Source: a plasmid. Taken from it: a DNA stretch of 64,000 nucleotides. The notes beneath the pieces are model-generated. The model saw nothing but the letters and a program-made list of their open reading frames with translations, had not been told where the DNA came from and made no database searches. Every line of letters begins with the position of its first letter. Position 1 is the first letter of the stretch. Positions 2,610-54,158 of the stretch are shown in pieces. The DNA lies in assembly GCF_056712565.1 (NCBI RefSeq), contig NZ_JBWXXM010000003.1; one strand, written 5' to 3'. The translations under genes were made by a program, and so were the position numbers.

Positions 2610-3563
2610 ATGTACTTAAAGATTCTTGCTACTGCACTCTCAGCTCCTGTAGCGTTTGCTGCACTGGCTTCTGATACTGGGCTTTCTTTTACACCGGAGA
2701 AAATCAGTACGGAGATTGATTTTGGCACTTTAAGTGGCAAGGCCAAAGAACGGGTTTATCTGCCTGAAGAAAAAGGGCGCAAAGCCAGCCAGCTGGACTG
2801 GAAATACAGTAATGCGCCAATTGTCAAGGGGGCATTTAACTGGGATCTGTTACCCAGAGTATCTGTCGGTGCCTCAGGGTGGACAACATTAGCTGGTCGT
2901 GGAGGCAATATGGTGGACAGGGACTGGCTGGATACGAGCAATCCCGGAACCTGGACTGATGAGAGTAAACATCCGAATACCCGTCTAAATTTTGCTAATG
3001 AATTCGACCTGAATATTAAGGGATGGCTCCTGAATCAACCAGACTATCAGTTAGGTCTTATGGCTGGTTACCAGGAAAATCGTTATAGCTTTACAGCAAA
3101 AGGAGGCTCTTATATCTATAGTAGTGAGGGAGGCTTCCGGGATGAAACGGGATCATTTCCAGATGGTGAAAGAGCTATAGGCTACAAACAACACTTTAAA
3201 ATGCCCTATATAGGGTTAACCGGTAATTATCGGTATGATAGCTTTGAGTTCGGGGGGAGTTTCAAATATAGCGGATGGGTGAAGGCATCGGATAATGATG
3301 AGCATTACAACCCTGAGAAAAGGATCACCTATCGTAGCGATGTAAATAATCAGAACTATTACTCTGTCTCACTACATGCTGGTTATTATATTACACCTGC
3401 AGCTAAAGTTTATGTCGAAGGAACATGGAACCGTATTACTAATAAGAAAGGTGATACTTCTCTGTACTCCAGAAATTTGAATATATCTGATCACACCAAA
3501 AATGGTGCAGGCATTGAAAGCTATAACTTTATGACCACAGCTGGTCTGAAGTATTATTTTTAA
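2610..3563 (+). CDS. ompT: omptin-family outer membrane protease (plasmid OmpT)
   Basis: Track ORF 2604-3563; ATG at 2610 preceded by GGAG; signal peptide MYLKILATALSAPVAFA; omptin-like beta-barrel sequence with C-terminal ...TTAGLKYYF. Confidence 0.85.
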   Translation: MYLKILATALSAPVAFAALASDTGLSFTPEKISTEIDFGTLSGKAKERVYLPEEKGRKASQLDWKYSNAPIVKGAFNWDLLPRVSVGASGWTTLAGRGGNMVDRDWLDTSNPGTWTDESKHPNTRLNFANEFDLNIKGWLLNQPDYQLGLMAGYQENRYSFTAKGGSYIYSSEGGFRDETGSFPDGERAIGYKQHFKMPYIGLTGNYRYDSFEFGGSFKYSGWVKASDNDEHYNPEKRITYRSDVNNQNYYSVSLHAGYYITPAAKVYVEGTWNRITNKKGDTSLYSRNLNISDHTKNGAGIESYNFMTTAGLKYYF

Positions 3564-3995
3564 CCTGAAGCATGCCTGTTTTTAACTTTTTCATGACACT
3601 TTAAATATGATAAACAAAAGGCCAGCACTTCTGATGGTGGTCTTTTGATTTTTTATAATATGTGGAGGGTATATGTGCTCAACGATAAAAGTGTTTCTGT
3701 TAACTCTTGTATTTTTAAAGATGCTGCCCTGCCACTCTTCATGCATAACGACACAGTGTTATCGACATAAAAATAATTGATAAGCGATGTTAACAATATG
3801 AACTTTATTATAATTCTATTACTCGTCAATAATAAGAAGACCATCCAATAAAAACACACGCAATAACCTGAAGGATTCTGCCGTATAAAAATAAACATTG
3901 TTTTTACATTTAATCTCTCTTGATTTTGTTTAATCATTGTTTATGTAAGATAATTTATTTTTATAATGATCACATGAAAACAAAAGAGGTTAGAT

Positions 3996-6758: not shown

Positions 6759-7499
6759 ATGAACAATGTCATTCCCCTGCAGAATTCACCAGAACGCGTC
6801 TCCCTGTTACCCATTGCGCCGGGGGTGGATTTTGCAACAGCGCTCTCCCTGAGAAGAATGGCCACTTCCACGGGGGCCACACCGGCCTACCTGCTGGCCC
6901 CGGAAGTGAGTGCCCTTCTTTTCTATATGCCGGATCAGCGTCACCATATGCTGTTCGCCACCCTCTGGAATACCGGAATGCGTATTGGCGAAGCCCGGAT
7001 GCTGACGCCGGAATCATTTGACCTGAATGGAGTAAGACCGTTTGTGCGGATCCTGTCCGAAAAAGTGCGTGCGCGACGCGGACGCCCGCCAAAAGATGAA
7101 GTGCGCCTGGTTCCGCTGACAGATATAAGCTATGTCAGGCAGATGGAAAGCTGGATGATCACCACCCGGCCCCGTCGTCGTGAACCATTATGGGCCGTGA
7201 CCGACGAAACCATGCGCAACTGGCTGAAGCAGGCTGTCAGACGGGCCGAAGCTGACGGAGTACACTTTTCGATTCCGGTCACACCACACACCTTCCGGCA
7301 CAGCTATATCATGCACATGCTCTATCACCGCCAGCCCCGGAAAGTCATCCAGGCACTGGCTGGTCACAGGGATCCACGTTCGATGGAGGTTTATACCAGA
7401 GTGTTTGCACTGGATATGGCTGCCACGCTGGCAGTGCCTTTCACAGGTGACGGGCGGGATGCTGCGGAGATCCTGCGTACACTGCCTCCCCTGAGGTGA
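6759..7499 (+). CDS. int: tyrosine site-specific recombinase/integrase adjacent to RepFIB replicon
   Basis: 246 aa with C-terminal catalytic region ...[14 protein letters not shown]...[14 protein letters not shown] (R..H..R..Y signature of tyrosine recombinases). Confidence 0.75.
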
Positions 7500-7790
7500 C
7501 GGCATACGCGCTTCCTTATATAAGCTGTGGTCAGCAGAACAGACATAACATAAGCTGGAGCATGTATATAAGCTGTAGTGAGTAAGTCATGTTTTATGAA
7601 GGGAGCAATGCCTCAGCATCAGGTTACGGGATCACTTACGTAAGGGACAGGCAGATGGCAGCTCAGCTACAGACAGCACTGCAGGAAACAGAATATAAAC
7701 TGCAGTGAGCAGACCACTCACTGCACCGGTTAATATAAGCTGTAGTCAGTAAAGGAGCGCTCTTCACTGACTACAGTTTATGTTCAGCGG
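7500..7790. repeat. RepFIB iterons (direct repeats of ~ATATAAGCTGTAGTCAG) plus terminal palindrome
   Basis: Repeated ATAAGCTGTGGTCAGC / ATATAAGCTGTAGTGAGT / ATATAAACTGCAGTGAGC / ATATAAGCTGTAGTCAGT copies; palindrome CTGTAGTCAGTAAAGGAGCGCTCTTCACTGACTACAG at ~7741-7780. Confidence 0.65.
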
Positions 7791-8761
7791 GATTTGAAGA
7801 GTTTTTCCAGGTCATCCAGCGTGATGCCCAGTTTCTCAAGCAGGGCAAGCTTCTCCGCCATCTCCGGACTGACTTTTTCCGCAGGTGAAGGTTGCAACGG
7901 ATTTTCCTTACTCTCGTCATTCGGCGCTTTTAACCGGGGACGCCGGTAGTGAATACAGAAGAATTTTGTCCGCCCCCGCTGGATCTCCGTGTAATCAAGA
8001 TATCCAATCTCGCGCAACTGCTCCATTGCCCGTCTGACCGTCTGGTTCTGGGAAAATACAGGAGACTTCAGATTGAGGCGTGCACGCAGCCGCGCCAGCG
8101 ATATCGGTGCCGGATCCCGGGGCAGGCTCTCTATAAAGGTGTAGAGTGCCTGGGCGGACTCCCGTCGCTTCAGGGCATTAATCGCCTTAAGCTGGAGAAG
8201 GACTTTTCTGTCAAACTGGTACAGTTCAAACAGGCGGGGATCGGCCTGTAACTGCACAATATCCCGCTCAGTATCGTAGTAAGCTGACTGTACCAGATGG
8301 GTGATATATTCCCGGGTGTGCTTCTCATCGGTACGGGAAAACGAAATCACGGTACCGGCAATGCGCTTCAGGGAAGGGCTGATGCGCTCACGCAGCCTGC
8401 GGGATGACTGGCTTGAAGGTATACCACACAGTTTTGCAAACTCAACAAAAGGCAGTTCAACTTTGTCACCAATCACGTTATGGCGGGCAAAGGAATGAAT
8501 GATCCCCACCCAGGTCTTGAAATCATTATCCATATCCAGGCGGGGGCCGGTGATCTCAACCTTATCGAATCCCTCAGCACGGGCCAGGGAAAGACGTGTC
8601 AGCTCTTCCGTGGCATCAGTACGTGACAGTGTATTTTTTTTACTGTTCTTCAGTGATTTAAGGGTCGGTACAAAAACGCCCAGACGCATCAGCGCCACAG
8701 GTTGTACGGTGTTGTTATTGTTTGGTGTCAGTGTCACCAGCTCACCGGAGGACTTATCCAC
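7784..8761 (-). CDS. repA: RepFIB replication initiator RepA (iteron-binding Rep)
   Basis: 325 aa; iteron arrays on both flanks; sequence recognised as RepFIB RepA; start appears to be GTG. Confidence 0.85.
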
Positions 8762-8869
8762 CTCGCCGAACAGTTTTTTGATGTTTGAATTTTCGTTTTC
8801 CAGAAAGCCTCCAGCCTGTGGACAGTAAAAGAATAAACAGAAAATCGTGTGTCAGAACTCCGCTAACTG

Positions 8870-9030: not shown

Positions 9031-9506
9031 CGGCCCATGAGTGACAAGGTTTGCAGCGATATGGGGATCTTTAATGGATCCTTTGTTGATCATTCATGGA
9101 TCTGTTTACTGGATCGGGCCTCCGGATATGTGGATAAATCATTCCAGAAGGACAGCGCACACAACCGTTTTATGAAAGGGCTTCAGGGCGTACCTGCTCC
9201 CTGTAACTACAGATACATTGCGCTTCCTCGCCGGTTCGCGGGCTTCGCCCGGTCACCGGTCTGCGGCGAGCACTGTTTTTTCTGATGTCTGTCTTTACAG
9301 GTAATTTTTGACGGAATCTGCCGTACTTCCTGAGCGTACGGTCATATCCGAAGTACACTTCATATGTGTGTTTCAATGCCAGGGATTGTGTATACAAACT
9401 ACAGGTGTCAGCGCCAGTGATATAAGACGGTAATTCACCATTTGGATTGTCCGCTCCACCCAACATGTTGTTTCCTTAAGGTTCTCACACCAGAAAGGAC
9501 ATCAAC

Positions 9507-9863
9507 ATGCTGAGCAGAGAGGACTTTTACATGATAAAGCAAATGCGCCAGCAGGGCGCGTACATTGTCGATATTGCGGCTCAGATTGGTTGCTCTGAAC
9601 GGACGGTCAGACGCTACCTCAAATACCCTGAACCGCCAGCCAGAAAGACCCGCCACAAAATGGTTAAGCTGAAACCGTTTATGGATTACATCGACATGCG
9701 CCTGGCAGAGAATGTCTGGAATAGCGAGGTTATCTTCGCGGAGATTAAGGCAATGGGTTATACGGGCGGACGTTCCATGCTGCGTTACTACATCCAGCCC
9801 AAACGTAAAATGCGTCCGTCAAAAAGAACAAGGAGAGAGTTACCGGTTAAAAGAGAAACGTAA
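9507..9863 (+). pseudogene. istA: IS21-family transposase IstA, N-terminal fragment only
   Basis: 118 aa MLSREDFYMIKQMRQQGAYIVDIAAQIGCSERTVRRYLKYPEPP... HTH N-terminus of IstA; ORF ends far short of full-length IstA. Confidence 0.6.
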
Positions 9864-35016: not shown

Positions 35017-36192
35017 ATGTTCAGAATGAGACTCATGGAAACACTTAACCAGTGCATAAACGCTGGTCATGAAATGACGAAGGCTATCGCCATTGCACAG
35101 TTTAATGATGACAGCCCGGAAGCGAGGAAAATCACCCGACGCTGGAGAATAGGTGAAGCAGCGGATTTAGTTGGAGTATCTTCTCAGGCTATCAGGGATG
35201 CCGAGAAAGCAGGCCGGCTACCGCACCCGGATATGGAAATACGAGGACGGGTTGAGCAACGTGTTGGTTATACAATTGAACAAATTAATCATATGCGTGA
35301 CGTGTTTGGTACGAGACTACGACGTGCTGAAGACGTATTTCCGCCGGTGATTGGAGTTGCTGCTCATAAAGGGGGCGTTTACAAAACCTCTGTTTCTGTT
35401 CATCTTGCTCAGGATCTGGCTCTGAAGGGATTACGTGTTCTGCTCGTGGAAGGTAACGACCCCCAGGGAACAGCATCGATGTATCACGGCTGGGTGCCAG
35501 ATCTTCATATTCATGCAGAGGATACTCTCCTTCCCTTCTATCTTGGGGAAAAGGACGATGTCACTTATGCAATAAAGCCTACTTGCTGGCCTGGGCTTGA
35601 CATTATTCCTTCCTGTTTGGCTCTGCACCGCATTGAAACTGAGCTAATGGGCAAATTTGATGAAGGTAAATTGCCCACCGATCCACACCTGATGCTCCGA
35701 CTGGCCATTGAAACCGTCGCTCATGACTATGATGTCATTGTCATTGACAGCGCGCCTAACCTAGGTATCGGCACGATTAATGTTGTATGTGCTGCTGATG
35801 TGTTGATTGTCCCCACGCCTGCTGAGTTGTTCGACTACACTTCCGCTCTGCAGTTTTTCGATATGCTTCGTGATCTGCTCAAAAACGTAGATCTTAAAGG
35901 ATTCGAGCCTGATGTACGTATTTTGCTTACCAAATACAGTAATAGTAATGGTTCTCAGTCCCCGTGGATGGAGGAGCAAATTCGGGACGCCTGGGGAAGC
36001 ATGGTCCTAAAAAATGTTGTGCGTGAAACGGATGAAGTTGGTAAAGGTCAGATCCGGATGAGAACTGTTTTTGAACAGGCTATTGATCAACGCTCTTCAA
36101 CAGGTGCCTGGAGAAATGCCCTTTCTATTTGGGAACCTGTCTGCAATGAAATTTTCGATCGTTTGATTAAACCACGCTGGGAGATTAGATAA
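35017..36192 (+). CDS. sopA: SopA, ParA-type partition ATPase
   Basis: Deviant Walker [12 protein letters not shown]-plasmid SopA-like sequence; start may be a few codons downstream. Confidence 0.9.
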
Positions 36193-37163
36193 TGAAGCGT
36201 GCGCCTGTCATTCCAAAACATACGATTAAGACTCAACCGCTTGAAGATACTCCGTCATCGGCACCAGCTGCACCGATGGTGGATTCGTTAATTGCGCGCG
36301 TAGGAGCTATGGCTCGTGGCAATGCTATTACTTTGCCTGTATGTGGTAGGGACGTGAAATTTACCCTTGAGGTGCTCCGGGGAGATAGTGTTGAGAAGAC
36401 CTCTCGGGTATGGTCAGGTAATGAACGTGACCAGGAACTGCTTACCGAAGACGCCCTGGATGATCTTATCCCTTCTTTTCTACTGACAGGTCAGCAGACA
36501 CCAGCATTCGGTCGAAGAGTGTCTGGGGTCATAGAAATTGCCGATGGGAGCCGCCGTCGTAAAGCTGCTGCACTTACAGAAAGTGATTATCGAGTTCTGG
36601 TTGGTGAGCTGGATGATGAGCAGATGGCTGCATTGTCCAGATTGGGTAACGATTATAGGCCAACAAGTGCTTATGAACGTGGTCAGCGTTATGCAAGCCG
36701 ATTGCAGAATGAATTTGCTGGAAATATTTCTGCGCTGGCTGATGCAGAAAATATTTCACGTAAGATTATTACCCGCTGTATCAACACAGCTAAACTGCCT
36801 AAATCAGTTGTTGCTCTTTTTTCTCATCCCGGTGAACTATCTGCCCGGTCAGGTGATGCACTTCAAAGAGCTTTTACAGATAAAGAAGAATTACTTAAGC
36901 AGCAGGCATCTAACCTTCACGAGCAGAAAAAAGCAGGAGTGATATTTGAAGCTGAAGAAGTCATCACTCTTTTAACGTCTGTGCTTAAAACGTCATCTGC
37001 CTCAAGAACTAGCTTAAGCTCACGACATCAGTTTGCTCCTGGAGCGACAGTGTTGTACAAGGGCGATAAAATGGTGTTAAACCTAGATAGATCTCGTATT
37101 CCAACTGAGTGTATAGAGAGAATTGAAGCCATTCTTAAGGAACTTGAAAAAGCGGCACTTTGA
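36192..37163 (+). CDS. sopB: SopB, ParB-type centromere-binding protein
   Basis: 323 aa directly downstream of sopA and upstream of sopC repeats. Confidence 0.9.
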
Positions 37164-37242
37164 TGCGGCACGTTTTAGTCTACATTTATCTGTCTTTACT
37201 TAATTTCCTTTAGCACAGGCTAGAAAACATAACTAACTGGCC

Positions 37243-37760
37243 TGAATATTATATCTGGGACCACGGTCCCAGTTGTATTGTCGGTCTGATAATCAGTCTG
37301 GGACCACGGTCCCACTCATATTGTCGGTCTGATAATCAGTCTGGGACCACGGTCCCACTCATATTGTCGGTCTGATTATCGGTCTGGGACCACGGGCCCA
37401 CTCATATTGTTAGTCTGCTAATCAGTCTGGGACCGCGGTCCCACTCGTATTGTTGGTCTGCTAATCAGTCTGGGACCACGGTCCCACTCATATTGTCGGT
37501 CTGCTAATCAGTCTGGGACCACGGTCCCACTCATATTGTCGGTCTGCTAATCAGTCTGGGACCACGGTCCCACTCATATTGTCGGTCTGCTAATCAGTCT
37601 GGGACCACGGTCCCACTCATATTGTTGGTCTGATTATCGGTCTGGGACCACGGTCCCACTCATATTGTTAGTCTGATAATCAGTCTGGGACCGCGGTCCC
37701 ACTCGTATTGTTGGTCTGCTAATCAGTCTGGGACCACGGTCTCACTTGTATTGTCGATCT
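37243..37760. repeat. sopC: sopC centromere, ~12 tandem 43-bp repeats
   Basis: Repeating CTGGGACCACGGTCCCACTCATATTGTCGGTCTGATAATCAGT units, each with inverted repeat GGGACCACGGTCCC. Confidence 0.95.
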
Positions 37761-38375
37761 GATTATCAGCGTGAGACTACGATTCCATTAATGCCTGCCA
37801 GTGAGTGTGTGGAACATATCTTGGCCAGTGGCTTGGTCTGTGATGTGCTGCGTATACCGGGTGAACCGCCCCGCCGCTTGTTTGACCGCTATATTCTGCG
37901 GGAGTTTTCTTGGAGGCACGGGATGAAATCCGCAGCATGGCGGATGCCCTGGCAAAAATCCGGAAATGATGACGATGGCGGGGAAAATCCCCGCCTTTTT
38001 CCTGCCGGTCCCCGGACAGAGCACAAAGGAAGTCGCCGCCGGCTCCGCTTTACCCGGCCATGCGGAGCATGGCCTTGTGGGGGTTCAGTTATGTGGACGT
38101 CGAGTCGTGTGCGGGCTGTGCCGTGCCTCCATCTTAGCCGGGCTGGCGTTGATGCAAGCAACTGTCTTAATGGGAGGCGGTTATCTGAAAAAAGTACGGG
38201 ATAATATTATGGAATCGCCCATCTCAAGCAAAAAACTGACTCGCTTCGATACTACGCTGACAGGCTGTTTTGAGCGAGATATCTCTCGTGTCGGGCATCG
38301 ACATTTTAAATGATTCTAAATAATATGAGCAGGGTCAGTCTTATTAAAGATTAAAACACCGGATAACAAGTTTTA

Positions 38376-38957
38376 TTGATTATGGATGAAGAGAAAACTC
38401 GTGCTGAAGTGGCACACATAGAATTTATTTCATATGGTACGTCTCGAATTTTTGATAGGCGTATGAGATCCTTAGACTGGAAGCGTAAGGTTGTCACCTT
38501 CCTTGGGGTCTTTGTTCCACTGATGATAGGTTGTGCAGTTTTATCATTCGGACTTGAAGCTCCATTTCTGCCGCTTTGCATCACAATTGCCGGTGTGGCA
38601 AGTATCATGCAATTGGGGTTCTCGCTGTGGTCTTTGGTTTCCGGATGGGATCGCTCATATAGTGATTGCATGGCTTCCGTTAAGGAAAATACAGCCATTT
38701 ATAACCTAGCTGGTAGTGTTCGCAAGAAAATAGGTAAGCTTGACGAAGCCAAATTGGAAATTTTGATAGACGATTTGACGGAAAAATTTGAGCGAAGGGA
38801 GCAGGAAGACTTAACTTTGTGTGTGAGTGATAAAGAACTTCGTTATGCAAACCGTATGTCCTGTTTCTACTTCAAAAAAAAATGCCATATTTGTAATGTC
38901 GTTCCCCTAACTTTGAAACCGGGAAAATGTGTTTGTGATGGTTGTGGGAAATTTTAA
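38376..38957 (+). CDS. hypothetical membrane protein (193 aa): two TM helices, C-terminal Cys cluster
   Basis: TM segments VVTFLGVFVPLMIGCAVLSFGL and LPLCITIAGVASIMQLGFSLWSLV; C-terminal CHICN...KCVCDGCG; AT-rich. Confidence 0.5.
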   Translation: MIMDEEKTRAEVAHIEFISYGTSRIFDRRMRSLDWKRKVVTFLGVFVPLMIGCAVLSFGLEAPFLPLCITIAGVASIMQLGFSLWSLVSGWDRSYSDCMASVKENTAIYNLAGSVRKKIGKLDEAKLEILIDDLTEKFERREQEDLTLCVSDKELRYANRMSCFYFKKKCHICNVVPLTLKPGKCVCDGCGKF

Positions 38958-38969
38958 CAAGGAGAACAT

Positions 38970-39182
38970 ATGAGTAGTGCAAAAATTCTTAACGCTTACT
39001 TCGAGGCTTCTGAAGAAGATCGAAAGGAGTTCCTACGGGTTCTTAGTCATTTTTATAAGGATAACCGAAGAGTACCTCTGCAAGAGGGCATGGAGAGCTT
39101 TGCCGTCAATGAAAGCATCCGTAAATCGCAGTCAATTAACTTTGCCCCTATGCAAGGTGGGTGTCCACTCTGCGGCAAGTAA
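38970..39182 (+). CDS. hypothetical small protein (70 aa) with C-terminal CPLCGK
   Basis: Strong RBS AAGGAGAACATATG 12 nt after upstream stop, suggesting translational coupling with 38376-38957. Confidence 0.5.
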   Translation: MSSAKILNAYFEASEEDRKEFLRVLSHFYKDNRRVPLQEGMESFAVNESIRKSQSINFAPMQGGCPLCGK

Positions 39183-39379
39183 CGACCAAAGCCGCTTGAC
39201 TAGCGGCTTGATAGATTTCTTTATATTGTAACTAGCATCTTTACATCCTGTTAAAAAAGTGGCTATTGCCCGCTATCTTGCAATTCTCCGTATTTGGTAC
39301 AAAAACAGCCGAAAGCTGCACTATCAGCAGCTATGAGCAGCGGCCCCACTGACATCGCGGATGCTTTGTCCGTGGGAGG

Positions 39380-40650
<1,271 letters not shown>

Positions 40651-40815
40651 TTTACCCGCTCAGATTTCGCGGTCTCACCCTCCAACTCCCGCCAGCCGTG
40701 TGTGTCAGGCTGCGGCTTCCCTTGCGCCCTTTGCATCCCCGCCTTATCGCCCGGCTTTTATGGAGGCACGGCACAGCCCGGTGTCGCGGAATATGTGAAC
40801 AACGGAGGAAATCCC

Positions 40816-41241
40816 ATGCAGTATGCGAAACCTGTCACTCTGAATGTTGAAGAGTGCGACCGTCTGTCTTTTCTGCCTTACCTGTTTGGCAACGATTTTC
40901 TGTATGCCGAAGCATATGTGTACGCGCTGGCGCAAAAAATGATGCCGGAATATCAGGGAGGCTTCTGGCACTTCATCCGCCTGCCGGACGGTGGCGGTTA
41001 CATGATGCCGGATGGCGACCGTTTTCATCTGGTTAACGGTGAAAACTGGTTTGACCGCACGGTCAGTGCCGATGCCGCAGGCATCATTCTGACTTCCCTT
41101 GTGATTAACCGCCAGTTGTGGCTGTACCACGACAGCGGTAACGCAGGGCTGACACACCTGTACCGGATGCGTGATGCGCAGTTGTGGAGCCACATCGAAT
41201 TTCACCCCGAATGTAACGCGATTTACGCGGCGCTGGACTGA
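40816..41241 (+). CDS. klcA: KlcA/ArdB-family antirestriction protein
   Basis: 141 aa; pattern [13 protein letters not shown]...[22 protein letters not shown]...[10 protein letters not shown] matches KlcA/ArdB family; RBS GGAGG. Confidence 0.7.
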
Positions 41242-45354: not shown

Positions 45355-45900
45355 CTTGTTCTTCTTCTGCCTGTGCCTTTTCCGGGCGTCCCCCTGGCGG
45401 GGCGGGCTGTCGTGAACGGAGCCAGCGGAGCTGTCTCCGCCCTGGCGGGCTTCCATCCCTGACGCAAAACCCCTGGCTTGCAGCGACTGTTCCGGTCGCG
45501 CGCCTCTGTCGCGCCGTGGCCTGCGCTCCTGGCATCCCGGCAAAAGGCCGCCGGGATGTAAGGCGCAACGCCGTTTCGCAAACCGCGCTTCACGTCGTTG
45601 CGGCGGGTCCCTGCCCGTTGTTATGTCCGGTGCCATTCACCTGTTTAAGCCCCTGTCGCCGGGGGCAAAGACAGCCACAACCGTCTCCGCCAGTCCAGGG
45701 GTGAAATGCACATCCCGCAAAACTTTTTGCCCAAAAGCAGGCAAAAACTTTTGCGGTCTGCCCCCGGACAGTCGTTTCCTGCCGTGGCAGTGATGCCCCT
45801 TGCGGCGAAGGTTTTCAAAAAGGTGATGGTGAATACCGGAGGGAACAAAAGGCAGGTCCCCGCAAAACGTCAAAACCGCGGCTCCCGAAACTCAAAAGAT
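45355..45900. repeat. Frpo-like leading-region repeat, copy 2
   Basis: Same repeat family as 42095-42650; immediately upstream of ssb. Confidence 0.65.
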
Positions 45901-45936
45901 GATGGGGCTGAAAACATCAACAGAAGGAGACACATC

Positions 45937-46765
<829 letters not shown>

Positions 46766-53774: not shown

Positions 53775-54158
53775 ATGGCTAAGGTGAACCTGTATATCAG
53801 CAATGATGCCTATGAAAAAATAAATGCGATTATTGAGAAGCGTCGACAGGAAGGGGCAAGGGAAAAAGATGTCAGTTTTTCAGCAACAGCTTCAATGCTT
53901 CTTGAACTGGGGCTTCGTGTACATGAGGCTCAGATGGAGCGTAAAGAGTCTGCATTTAATCAGACTGAGTTTAATAAATTGCTTCTTGAATGCGTTGTAA
54001 AAACACAATCATCAGTAGCGAAAATTTTGGGTATTGAGTCTCTCAGTCCTCATGTCTCCGGAAATCCAAAGTTTGAATATGCCAATATGGTTGAAGATAT
54101 CAGGGAGAAGGTATCATCTGAGATGGAACGATTTTTTCCAAAAAATGATGATGAATAA
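53775..54158 (+). CDS. traM: TraM, relaxosome accessory protein
   Basis: 127 aa MAKVNLYISNDAYEKINAIIEKRRQEGAREKDVSFSATASMLLELGLRV... Confidence 0.9.
   Translation: MAKVNLYISNDAYEKINAIIEKRRQEGAREKDVSFSATASMLLELGLRVHEAQMERKESAFNQTEFNKLLLECVVKTQSSVAKILGIESLSPHVSGNPKFEYANMVEDIREKVSSEMERFFPKNDDE

Follow-up and report, generated by a model that had tools for sequence, protein, structure and literature searches.

In a 64,000-nucleotide stretch of plasmid DNA (contig NZ_JBWXXM010000003.1 of RefSeq assembly GCF_056712565.1; in the following, the window refers to this whole stretch), two small adjacent genes, here called A and B, lie between the sopC array and an insertion sequence (IS) of the IS110 family. 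We found that A and B form an inseparable pair on mobile elements of at least three bacterial phyla, with B being the obligate partner of A. Protein A belongs to a family that has a name but no function attached to it (NCBIfam TIGR04402, Pfam PF27874); it is SLATT-like in modelled fold and predicted topology, and ends in a putative zinc ribbon with four cysteines (C4). Protein B, 70 amino acids (aa) long, defines a previously unrecognised mini-protein family, which annotation has missed in several RefSeq plasmids. We consider the chances about even that the two genes constitute an enzyme-free membrane-effector module acting in abortive infection, exclusion or addiction, with B as its latch or sensor.

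Distant A loci were collected by tblastn against plasmids, by look-ups of exact proteins and with a degenerate DNA pattern for the tail of B. The 16 distinct loci span Pseudomonadota, Actinomycetota and Bacteroidota, and comprise the window; loci in Pectobacterium, Pantoea and Citrobacter; an uncultured lambdoid prophage; a Dickeya plasmid; integron-cassette-like arrays (L012/L013 and Vibrio parahaemolyticus); a phage-like contig; two further metagenomic contexts; and plasmids of Flavobacterium, Rhodococcus (two) and Streptomyces (two). All of them (16/16) contained a same-strand open reading frame (ORF) of 62-80 aa directly downstream of A, either overlapping its end or starting within about 25 nt, and ending in ...[FL][AG]P-x3-5-C-x-x-C-[GK]-[KR]-stop. 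Starting from B, a degenerate DNA pattern for FAPx4CPxCGK-stop matched five times in 100,044 species genomes (four real B genes) and 24 times in a metagenome collection (20 real B genes). Wherever upstream sequence was present, i.e. for three species-genome and 18 metagenome loci, an A-family gene was located directly upstream (hidden Markov model E <= 1e-37). A Flavobacterium B retrieved with a broadened profile also had A upstream, giving 22/22 from this side. The suggestion that the two genes are a conserved unit was supported from both directions.

Both ORFs are genuine and lie on the plus strand at the coordinates first noted, as judged from the ORF list and the sequence (Table 1). For A, the RefSeq entry WP_000343071.1 uses the ATG start (191 aa) and the UniProt entry B7LI42 the TTG start (193 aa). 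The genes were closely spaced or overlapping in every homologous locus. In the window, A stops with TAA and the ATG of B is preceded by AAGGAG at a distance of 6 nt. Regarding the translational coupling proposed in the original prediction, the genes are closely spaced (12 nt, with a ribosome-binding site) and do not overlap. The E. coli copy has B in the same frame as A, with a single TAA and four codons between them. Programmed read-through from A into B was rejected as a general mechanism, as this frame relationship was not kept in other loci. Two in-frame A-B fusions were detected among family representatives, one complete (P0068) and one breaking off within B (P0069). One locus, L030 (SFGN01000139.1, labelled as a Lachnospiraceae metagenome-assembled genome), encodes a B identical to that of the window with an A-family gene directly upstream, and is probably an E. 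coli plasmid contig that was misbinned as Lachnospiraceae.

The original prediction had recognised neither protein. Protein A, however, matched TIGR04402 ('mobilome CxxCx(11)CxxC protein') with an E-value of 8.4e-55 (185.8 bits, cut-off 70); its residues 8-191 aligned to model positions 2-180 of 180, making it a full-length member. Homologues of A carry the precomputed Pfam assignment PF27874 (Mob_CxxC_CxxC). No significant match to A was obtained in an older local Pfam-A, PHROGs or PADLOC, and no homology to a housekeeping membrane protein, which would have counted against the original prediction, was found. An exhaustive profile search at E <= 0.001 of 1.84 billion representatives returned 442 clusters (50% identity), and almost all of these proteins were about 180-210 aa long. 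Four cysteines (C168, C171, C185 and C188) were invariant in 123 aligned full-length members, and T20, R27, P46, G50, Q77, W89, D143, E152, R154, R158, P175 and G189 were nearly so. The cysteine arrangement is CxxC-x13-CxxC in the window; a spacer of 11 residues was found in 116 of 143 members. Some family members gave weak matches to zinc-ribbon models of Pfam.

The two transmembrane segments and the C-terminal cysteine cluster that had been read from the letters were borne out by coordinates, hydropathy, AlphaFold2 (AF2) modelling and the invariance of the cysteines. A charge cluster of +4 (RRMRSLDWKRK) precedes the first transmembrane helix, and a loop of six residues separates the hydrophobic segments. 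These features fit an N-in/C-in hairpin, in which the N-terminus and the long C-terminal part would be cytoplasmic. In the AF2 model, helices span residues 3-56 (a cytoplasmic part and the first transmembrane helix), 63-87 (the second transmembrane helix), 89-116, 122-146 and 150-164, the last three packing into a cytoplasmic bundle that is followed by the zinc ribbon. The mean confidence (predicted local distance difference test, pLDDT) was 80 with nine sequences, and a deep alignment gave block means of 93-98 up to residue 180. A Foldseek search against AFDB50, one of the checks the original prediction had called for, returned best matches annotated as SLATT, DUF4231 or mobilome CxxC. SLATT-annotated family members reached TM-scores of 0.85-0.92, and remoter SLATT-annotated proteins (11-19% identity) matched A at 0.61-0.79 (ranks 35-43). 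One match (A0A2R4K2C1, rank 15) is a protein of 617 aa annotated as SLATT that aligned to A over 189 columns with 28% identity. This protein thus fuses an A-like module to some 430 additional residues, and these could give a clue to the coupling partners of A-type modules.

Protein B is predicted to be soluble; two helices at its N-terminus are followed by a variable linker and, at the C-terminus, by the tail ...INFAPMQGGCPLCGK-stop. An initial sequence search found homologues in Enterobacterales only. The aligned B proteins span Pseudomonadota, Actinomycetota and Bacteroidota, and share the N-terminal helix pair, in which a motif resembling L-[ST]-x-x-E-x-x-E-[FL] occurs. Among 22 sequences from the three phyla, P60, C65 and C68 were invariant and G69 nearly so. 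B belongs to no family of Pfam, NCBIfam, PHROGs or PADLOC, and none of 45 relatives carried a Pfam domain or a name other than 'hypothetical'. In an AF2 model of A and B fused by a linker, the two N-terminal helices of B had block-mean pLDDT values of 74-96. The tail of B (...[FL][AG]P-xxxx-CPxCGK) resembles the second knuckle of the ribbon of A (...P-x(2-4)-CxxCG[NK][FY]). The tail may take part in a shared metal site.

We also considered B as a precursor of a ribosomally synthesised and post-translationally modified peptide (RiPP) with a double-glycine leader (...MQGG|CPLCGK). This idea was rejected because the GG is not kept outside the enterobacterial clade (7 of 22 aligned B sequences have neither glycine) and because neither a modifying enzyme nor an exporter is linked to the pair. 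In Rhodococcus and Streptomyces plasmids, the B mini-gene is missing from the RefSeq annotation (L016, 3503-3715; L017, 3576-3782; L018, ~3530-3745). In L017, the A-family gene is unannotated as well, and in the Rhodococcus copies B overlaps the end of A.

The genes flanking the pair were never conserved among loci; the A-B pair is therefore the whole unit. None of the neighbourhoods with listed genes contained a nucleotide cyclase/CD-NTase, a reverse transcriptase, or a TIR or SLOG partner. Several copies reside in phage-related elements: (i) in a prophage (L003), the pair lies 2.1 kb downstream of, and on the same strand as, a gene for an S24-peptidase repressor (LexA/cI-type); (ii) in L004, it is located just upstream of xis-int; (iii) in a phage-like contig (L020), it follows the tail tape-measure gene; and (iv) in a P4-like satellite of Citrobacter (L005-L009; integrase, AlpA, DUF927 primase), it lies beside a gene for a dCTP deaminase of 576 aa (PADLOC dCTPase, E 3e-148). 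Elsewhere, the pair adjoins a PifA homologue (L010, E 6e-79), a type I restriction-modification system (L025), CcdAB and ArdC (L011), or genes for a Phd/YefM-family antitoxin and a caspase-family peptidase (L021). It also occurs in cassette-like arrays of Vibrio (L023/L024), and the other carriers are plasmids, including small non-conjugative ones, or integrative and conjugative elements. These contexts are typical of accessory conflict cargo. The satellite neighbours of the pair in L005-L009 occupy 7120-8850 and 9200-9835, the latter encoding a 211-aa protein that matches no family.

The same pair was found with 61-89% protein identity in islands of Pectobacterium and Citrobacter and in lambdoid prophages, the similarity beginning only about 30-40 nt upstream of the ATG of A. 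This supports the earlier suggestion of acquired cargo. The AT-rich segment noted between sopC and the IS110-family element has a GC content of 39-44% (38200-39250), compared with about 49-59% in the flanks.

Copies at least 99% identical to that of the window were present in 346-349 PLSDB plasmids, mostly conjugative F-type plasmids of E. coli and Salmonella. The module was detected in 340 of 5,426 complete E. coli genomes (~6%), and 351 of 354 places were on plasmids, of F-type and often of the ColV or virulence/resistance kind. Only 165 of 346 plasmid records were contiguous across the IS1 site in A given in Table 1; the rest broke at positions 145-154 of the query (38560-38880). In the disrupted plasmids, about half of the total, IS1 always sits at this one site, and in many of them the sequence beyond it, B included, is gone as well; in L001 (6183-6518), A is cut to 111 codons beside IS1. 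The disruption is a single ancestral insertion that has since spread widely. All 165 intact copies of A retain at least the adjacent start of B. Repeated loss of A by IS1 or deletion means that the module is dispensable; possibly, it is costly to its carrier. As one IS1 event accounts for about half of the copies, natural pairs of intact and disrupted plasmids exist, which could be used to measure effects on phage sensitivity or plasmid fitness.

In the membrane-effector module that we propose, A would be an inner-membrane protein with an N-in/C-in hairpin, and its SLATT-like helical domain would be the effector. An enzyme making an activating signal is absent; its place may be taken by A's own cytoplasmic C4 zinc ribbon together with the obligate B. 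The N-terminal helical hairpin of B would bind the cytoplasmic bundle of A, and its strictly C-terminal CxxCGK half-knuckle may add to a shared or dimeric metal site, presupposing that both motifs bind zinc. As a trigger, B would be lost, displaced or modified in the course of an infection, or once the element itself has been lost. A freed in this way would oligomerise and permeabilise or depolarise the membrane, so that an anti-phage phenotype would arise from growth arrest of the infected cell. As a more tentative extension, which we regard as somewhat doubtful, the pair may stand for an ancient, cross-phyla, minimal class of enzyme-free SLATT-type immune or addiction systems, in which a mini-protein of about 70 aa gates a pore via a composite zinc site formed with the ribbon of the effector.

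The idea of a small effector with two transmembrane helices and a partner, already raised in the original prediction, fits the SLATT-like fold and the neighbours in defence islands; the PADLOC comparison suggested there gave it no support, since PADLOC-DB v2.0.0 (2023) contained no family for A or B at E-values up to 1. Several further points weigh against the proposed module. All-helical bundles give many non-specific structural matches. At the sequence level, the link to SLATT is marginal (of 123 members, three matched SLATT_4 and four DUF4231, with E-values of 0.001-0.1 throughout), the A of the window did not match the Pfam SLATT-clan models (SLATT_1-6, DUF4231), and structure searches of the PDB with A gave nothing specific; A is filed under TIGR04402/PF27874 and only described as SLATT-like because of these marginal links and unspecific PDB results. 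The C-terminal half of B was modelled at pLDDT values of 43-56 in the linker-fused model. The fusions P0068 and P0069 each come from a single short metagenome contig and could be sequencing errors, so they lend weak support. The association with defence islands is a tally of about a dozen contexts rather than a statistical test. Finally, neither tblastn against 50,697 phage records nor a scan of IMG/VR with the alignment of the enterobacterial clade gave a match.

The strongest alternative is a classical toxin-antitoxin (TA) system for post-segregational killing, with A as membrane toxin and B as labile antitoxin, which would mainly stabilise the carrier element rather than stop phages. Tight linkage of the genes and a small soluble partner would suit such a system. 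So would the location of the module, which lies beside partition loci on plasmids and also occurs in cassette-like arrays of Vibrio, since arrays of this type often contain TA cassettes. A CcdAB or Phd/YefM-family gene adjoins the pair in some loci. The frequent knock-out of A by IS1, together with the fact that an intact A without an adjacent B start was never seen (165 vs 165), points in the same direction, but the plasmid census represents essentially one clonal lineage, which makes this asymmetry weak evidence. Moreover, no domain for DNA binding or autoregulation could be recognised in B, and neither a search for inverted repeats nor a comparison of upstream regions found a conserved operator for the pair. 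The in-frame fusions, if real, argue against an antitoxin that is degraded separately. Overall, we consider a purely stabilising TA system unlikely, with the reservation that it overlaps mechanistically with the membrane-effector module, as many TA modules act as abortive-infection systems.

A function outside of conflict appears improbable. A and B could form a membrane-anchored metal or redox sensor, with a Cys4 and a Cys2 site, or a membrane-stress factor riding on mobile elements. Six conserved cysteines in CxxC motifs, the resemblance of CPxC to redox-active motifs and the absence of an enzymatic domain from both proteins would agree with this. Such a role is, however, difficult to reconcile with the sporadic, mobilome-restricted distribution (the 442 clusters and four species-genome B genes mentioned above) and with variable neighbourhoods in which integrases, phage genes and defence genes abound, and no transporter or regulator was linked to the pair.

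The positions of the pair, its candidate signals and its neighbours are listed in Table 1. A weak promoter-like site and a hairpin with a T-rich tract bracket the A-B unit. The promoter candidate is weak evidence, since four such sites were seen in the consensus scan with 2.4 expected, and the DNA upstream of A shows no conservation between this and other copies of the module. The hairpin is a likely terminator by its inverted repeat and sequence; a stricter terminator scan did not call it. No RNA family was detected in an Rfam scan of 37000-41000.

Table 1. Location of genes A and B, of their predicted features and of neighbouring elements in the window
Feature	Position	Strand	Remarks
sopA and sopB	35017-37163		
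sopC	37254-37769		array of 12 x 43 bp
Promoter candidate, sigma-70-like (TCGACA-17-TAATAT)	38298-38326	+	consensus scan, 9/12; ~55 nt upstream of A
Gene A	38382-38957	+	191 aa from ATG; alternative TTG start at 38376 gives 193 aa
Predicted transmembrane helix 1 of A	38493-38552	+	~aa 38-57, conserved P46 and G50; hydropathy, AF2, conservation
Predicted transmembrane helix 2 of A	38565-38645	+	~aa 62-88, conserved Q77, interfacial W89 just past the end; hydropathy, AF2, conservation
IS1 interruption site in A of related plasmids	38704-38713		copy in the window uninterrupted
Predicted C4 zinc ribbon of A (C168-x2-C171-x13-C185-x2-C188)	38883-38945	+	invariant cysteines
A-B spacer with AAGGAG ribosome-binding site	38958-38969	+	12 nt; direct sequence reading
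Gene B	38970-39182	+	70 aa; RefSeq WP_000092896.1, 'hypothetical'
Zinc-knuckle-like motif of B (CPLCGK)	39162-39179	+	always the last residues of the protein
Likely A-B terminator	39189-39209	+	perfect 8-bp hairpin AAGCCGCT-5 nt-AGCGGCTT, then T-rich; inverted repeat and sequence
ISEc32, IS110-family transposase	39443-40414	-	

Between sopC and the module, a GC-rich ORF of 115 aa (37966-38313) corresponds to the RefSeq hypothetical protein WP_001350917.1; it had no NCBIfam match and was absent from the other A-B loci. The annotation of plasmid pMS7163A has a pseudogene fragment with a frameshift immediately upstream of this ORF. On the other side, the ISEc32 transposase matches the NCBIfam model 'IS110 family RNA-guided transposase', and the IS adjoins the module in every plasmid match listed. 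Rightward of ISEc32 follows an F-type leading region with genes for an antirestriction protein, DUF1380 and DUF3560 proteins, a methyltransferase, the single-stranded DNA-binding protein (SSB), a ParB-like protein, PsiB and PsiA, and then TraM, TraJ and the beginning of the tra operon. The SSB-containing ORF (45706-46569) has 287 aa with the SSB match starting at residue 78, and its true start is probably internal, at about 45.94 kb. As SSB, PsiB and PsiA are encoded at about 45.9-50.0 kb and TraM starts at 53775, the origin of transfer (oriT) is placed between 53360 and 53775. At ~53.4-53.8 kb, it lies about 14 kb from the pair. The pair therefore occupies the end of the leading region that is close to sopC and distant from oriT, rather than the entry, where the original prediction had placed it.

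The A-B genes are transcribed in the direction of the leading-region genes. From the position of the pair within the sopC-oriT interval, from the direction it shares with ssb, psiB, psiA and the antirestriction gene and from the general enrichment of leading regions in anti-defence genes, one might expect early expression in the recipient that helps the plasmid establish itself, for instance by acting against defences of the host or by influencing the membrane or the SOS response. Such a role is highly improbable, however, given the distance from oriT, the presence of the same pair in prophages, in P4-like satellites, on small non-conjugative plasmids and in cassette arrays, all without a leading region, and its inactivation in about half of the F-type plasmids. 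In addition, the known types of anti-defence factor do not include membrane SLATT-like proteins.

Compared with the described members of TIGR04402/PF27874, A is typical in being full-length with about 190 aa, in its four invariant cysteines and in its mobile-element context; it differs in the ribbon spacer, which has 13 residues instead of the 11 in the family name. Neither the database records nor the literature searched link TIGR04402 to a partner, and B is unnamed everywhere we searched.

With type II TA systems, the pair shares the adjacency of its genes, the 12-nt spacer with a ribosome-binding site and the conservation of this arrangement, but a Pfam search recognised no DNA-binding domain in B. 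A similar arrangement is known for CptA (YgfX) and CptB (SdhE), where an inner-membrane toxin with two transmembrane helices is encoded next to a small cytoplasmic protein; no homology to A-B is known, and gene order and cysteine motifs differ.

Like RexAB of phage lambda and Sucellos, A-B is a two-gene prophage or cassette module combining a membrane component with a cytoplasmic partner, and the pair in the L003 prophage likewise lies downstream of a repressor gene. RexB has four transmembrane helices and RexA about 280 aa. In contrast, A has two transmembrane helices and B 62-80 aa, and family and fold searches revealed no resemblance to RexA or RexB. Sucellos, a system from V. cholerae integrons, is structurally RexAB-like (10.1101/2024.07.02.601686), and the possibility that A-B is Sucellos was rejected on this ground.

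SLATT proteins frequently serve as terminal effectors in bacterial immunity. They are required membrane effectors of DRT10 and also occur in type I cyclic oligonucleotide-based antiphage signalling systems (CBASS) and in the TIR-SLATT system Shaseng; in each of these, the SLATT protein is linked with an enzyme by which the activating signal is produced. A resembles the superfamily in its N-terminal cytoplasmic helix, transmembrane hairpin, C-terminal helices, length of about 190 aa and occurrence in defence and mobilome contexts, and some members of its family are labelled SLATT or DUF4231 in UniProt. It differs in lacking a partner of the CD-NTase, reverse transcriptase, TIR or SLOG type in the neighbourhoods with listed genes, and in having a predicted C4 zinc ribbon and a dedicated mini-protein instead. 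Specifically, no CD-NTase gene lies beside A in the window or in related loci, as it would in type I CBASS, and unlike in DRT10 (UG17), the neighbours of A-B are sopC and ISEc32, with no reverse transcriptase ORF and no Rfam non-coding RNA in 37000-41000.

How SLATT proteins are activated is named as a central open question in the DRT10 preprint. The A-B module seems to shrink this problem to two small proteins without a signalling enzyme, and could serve as a tractable model for SLATT activation; if our proposal is true, about 0.85 kb of DNA would provide a model for how such effectors are held off and then triggered. We found no published paper on the A-B pair. The family name of A and the SLATT-like fold as a kind of effector were already known; what distinguishes A-B from the systems above is that A always comes with a partner from a mini-protein family not recognised before, in a module that has no signal-generating enzyme.

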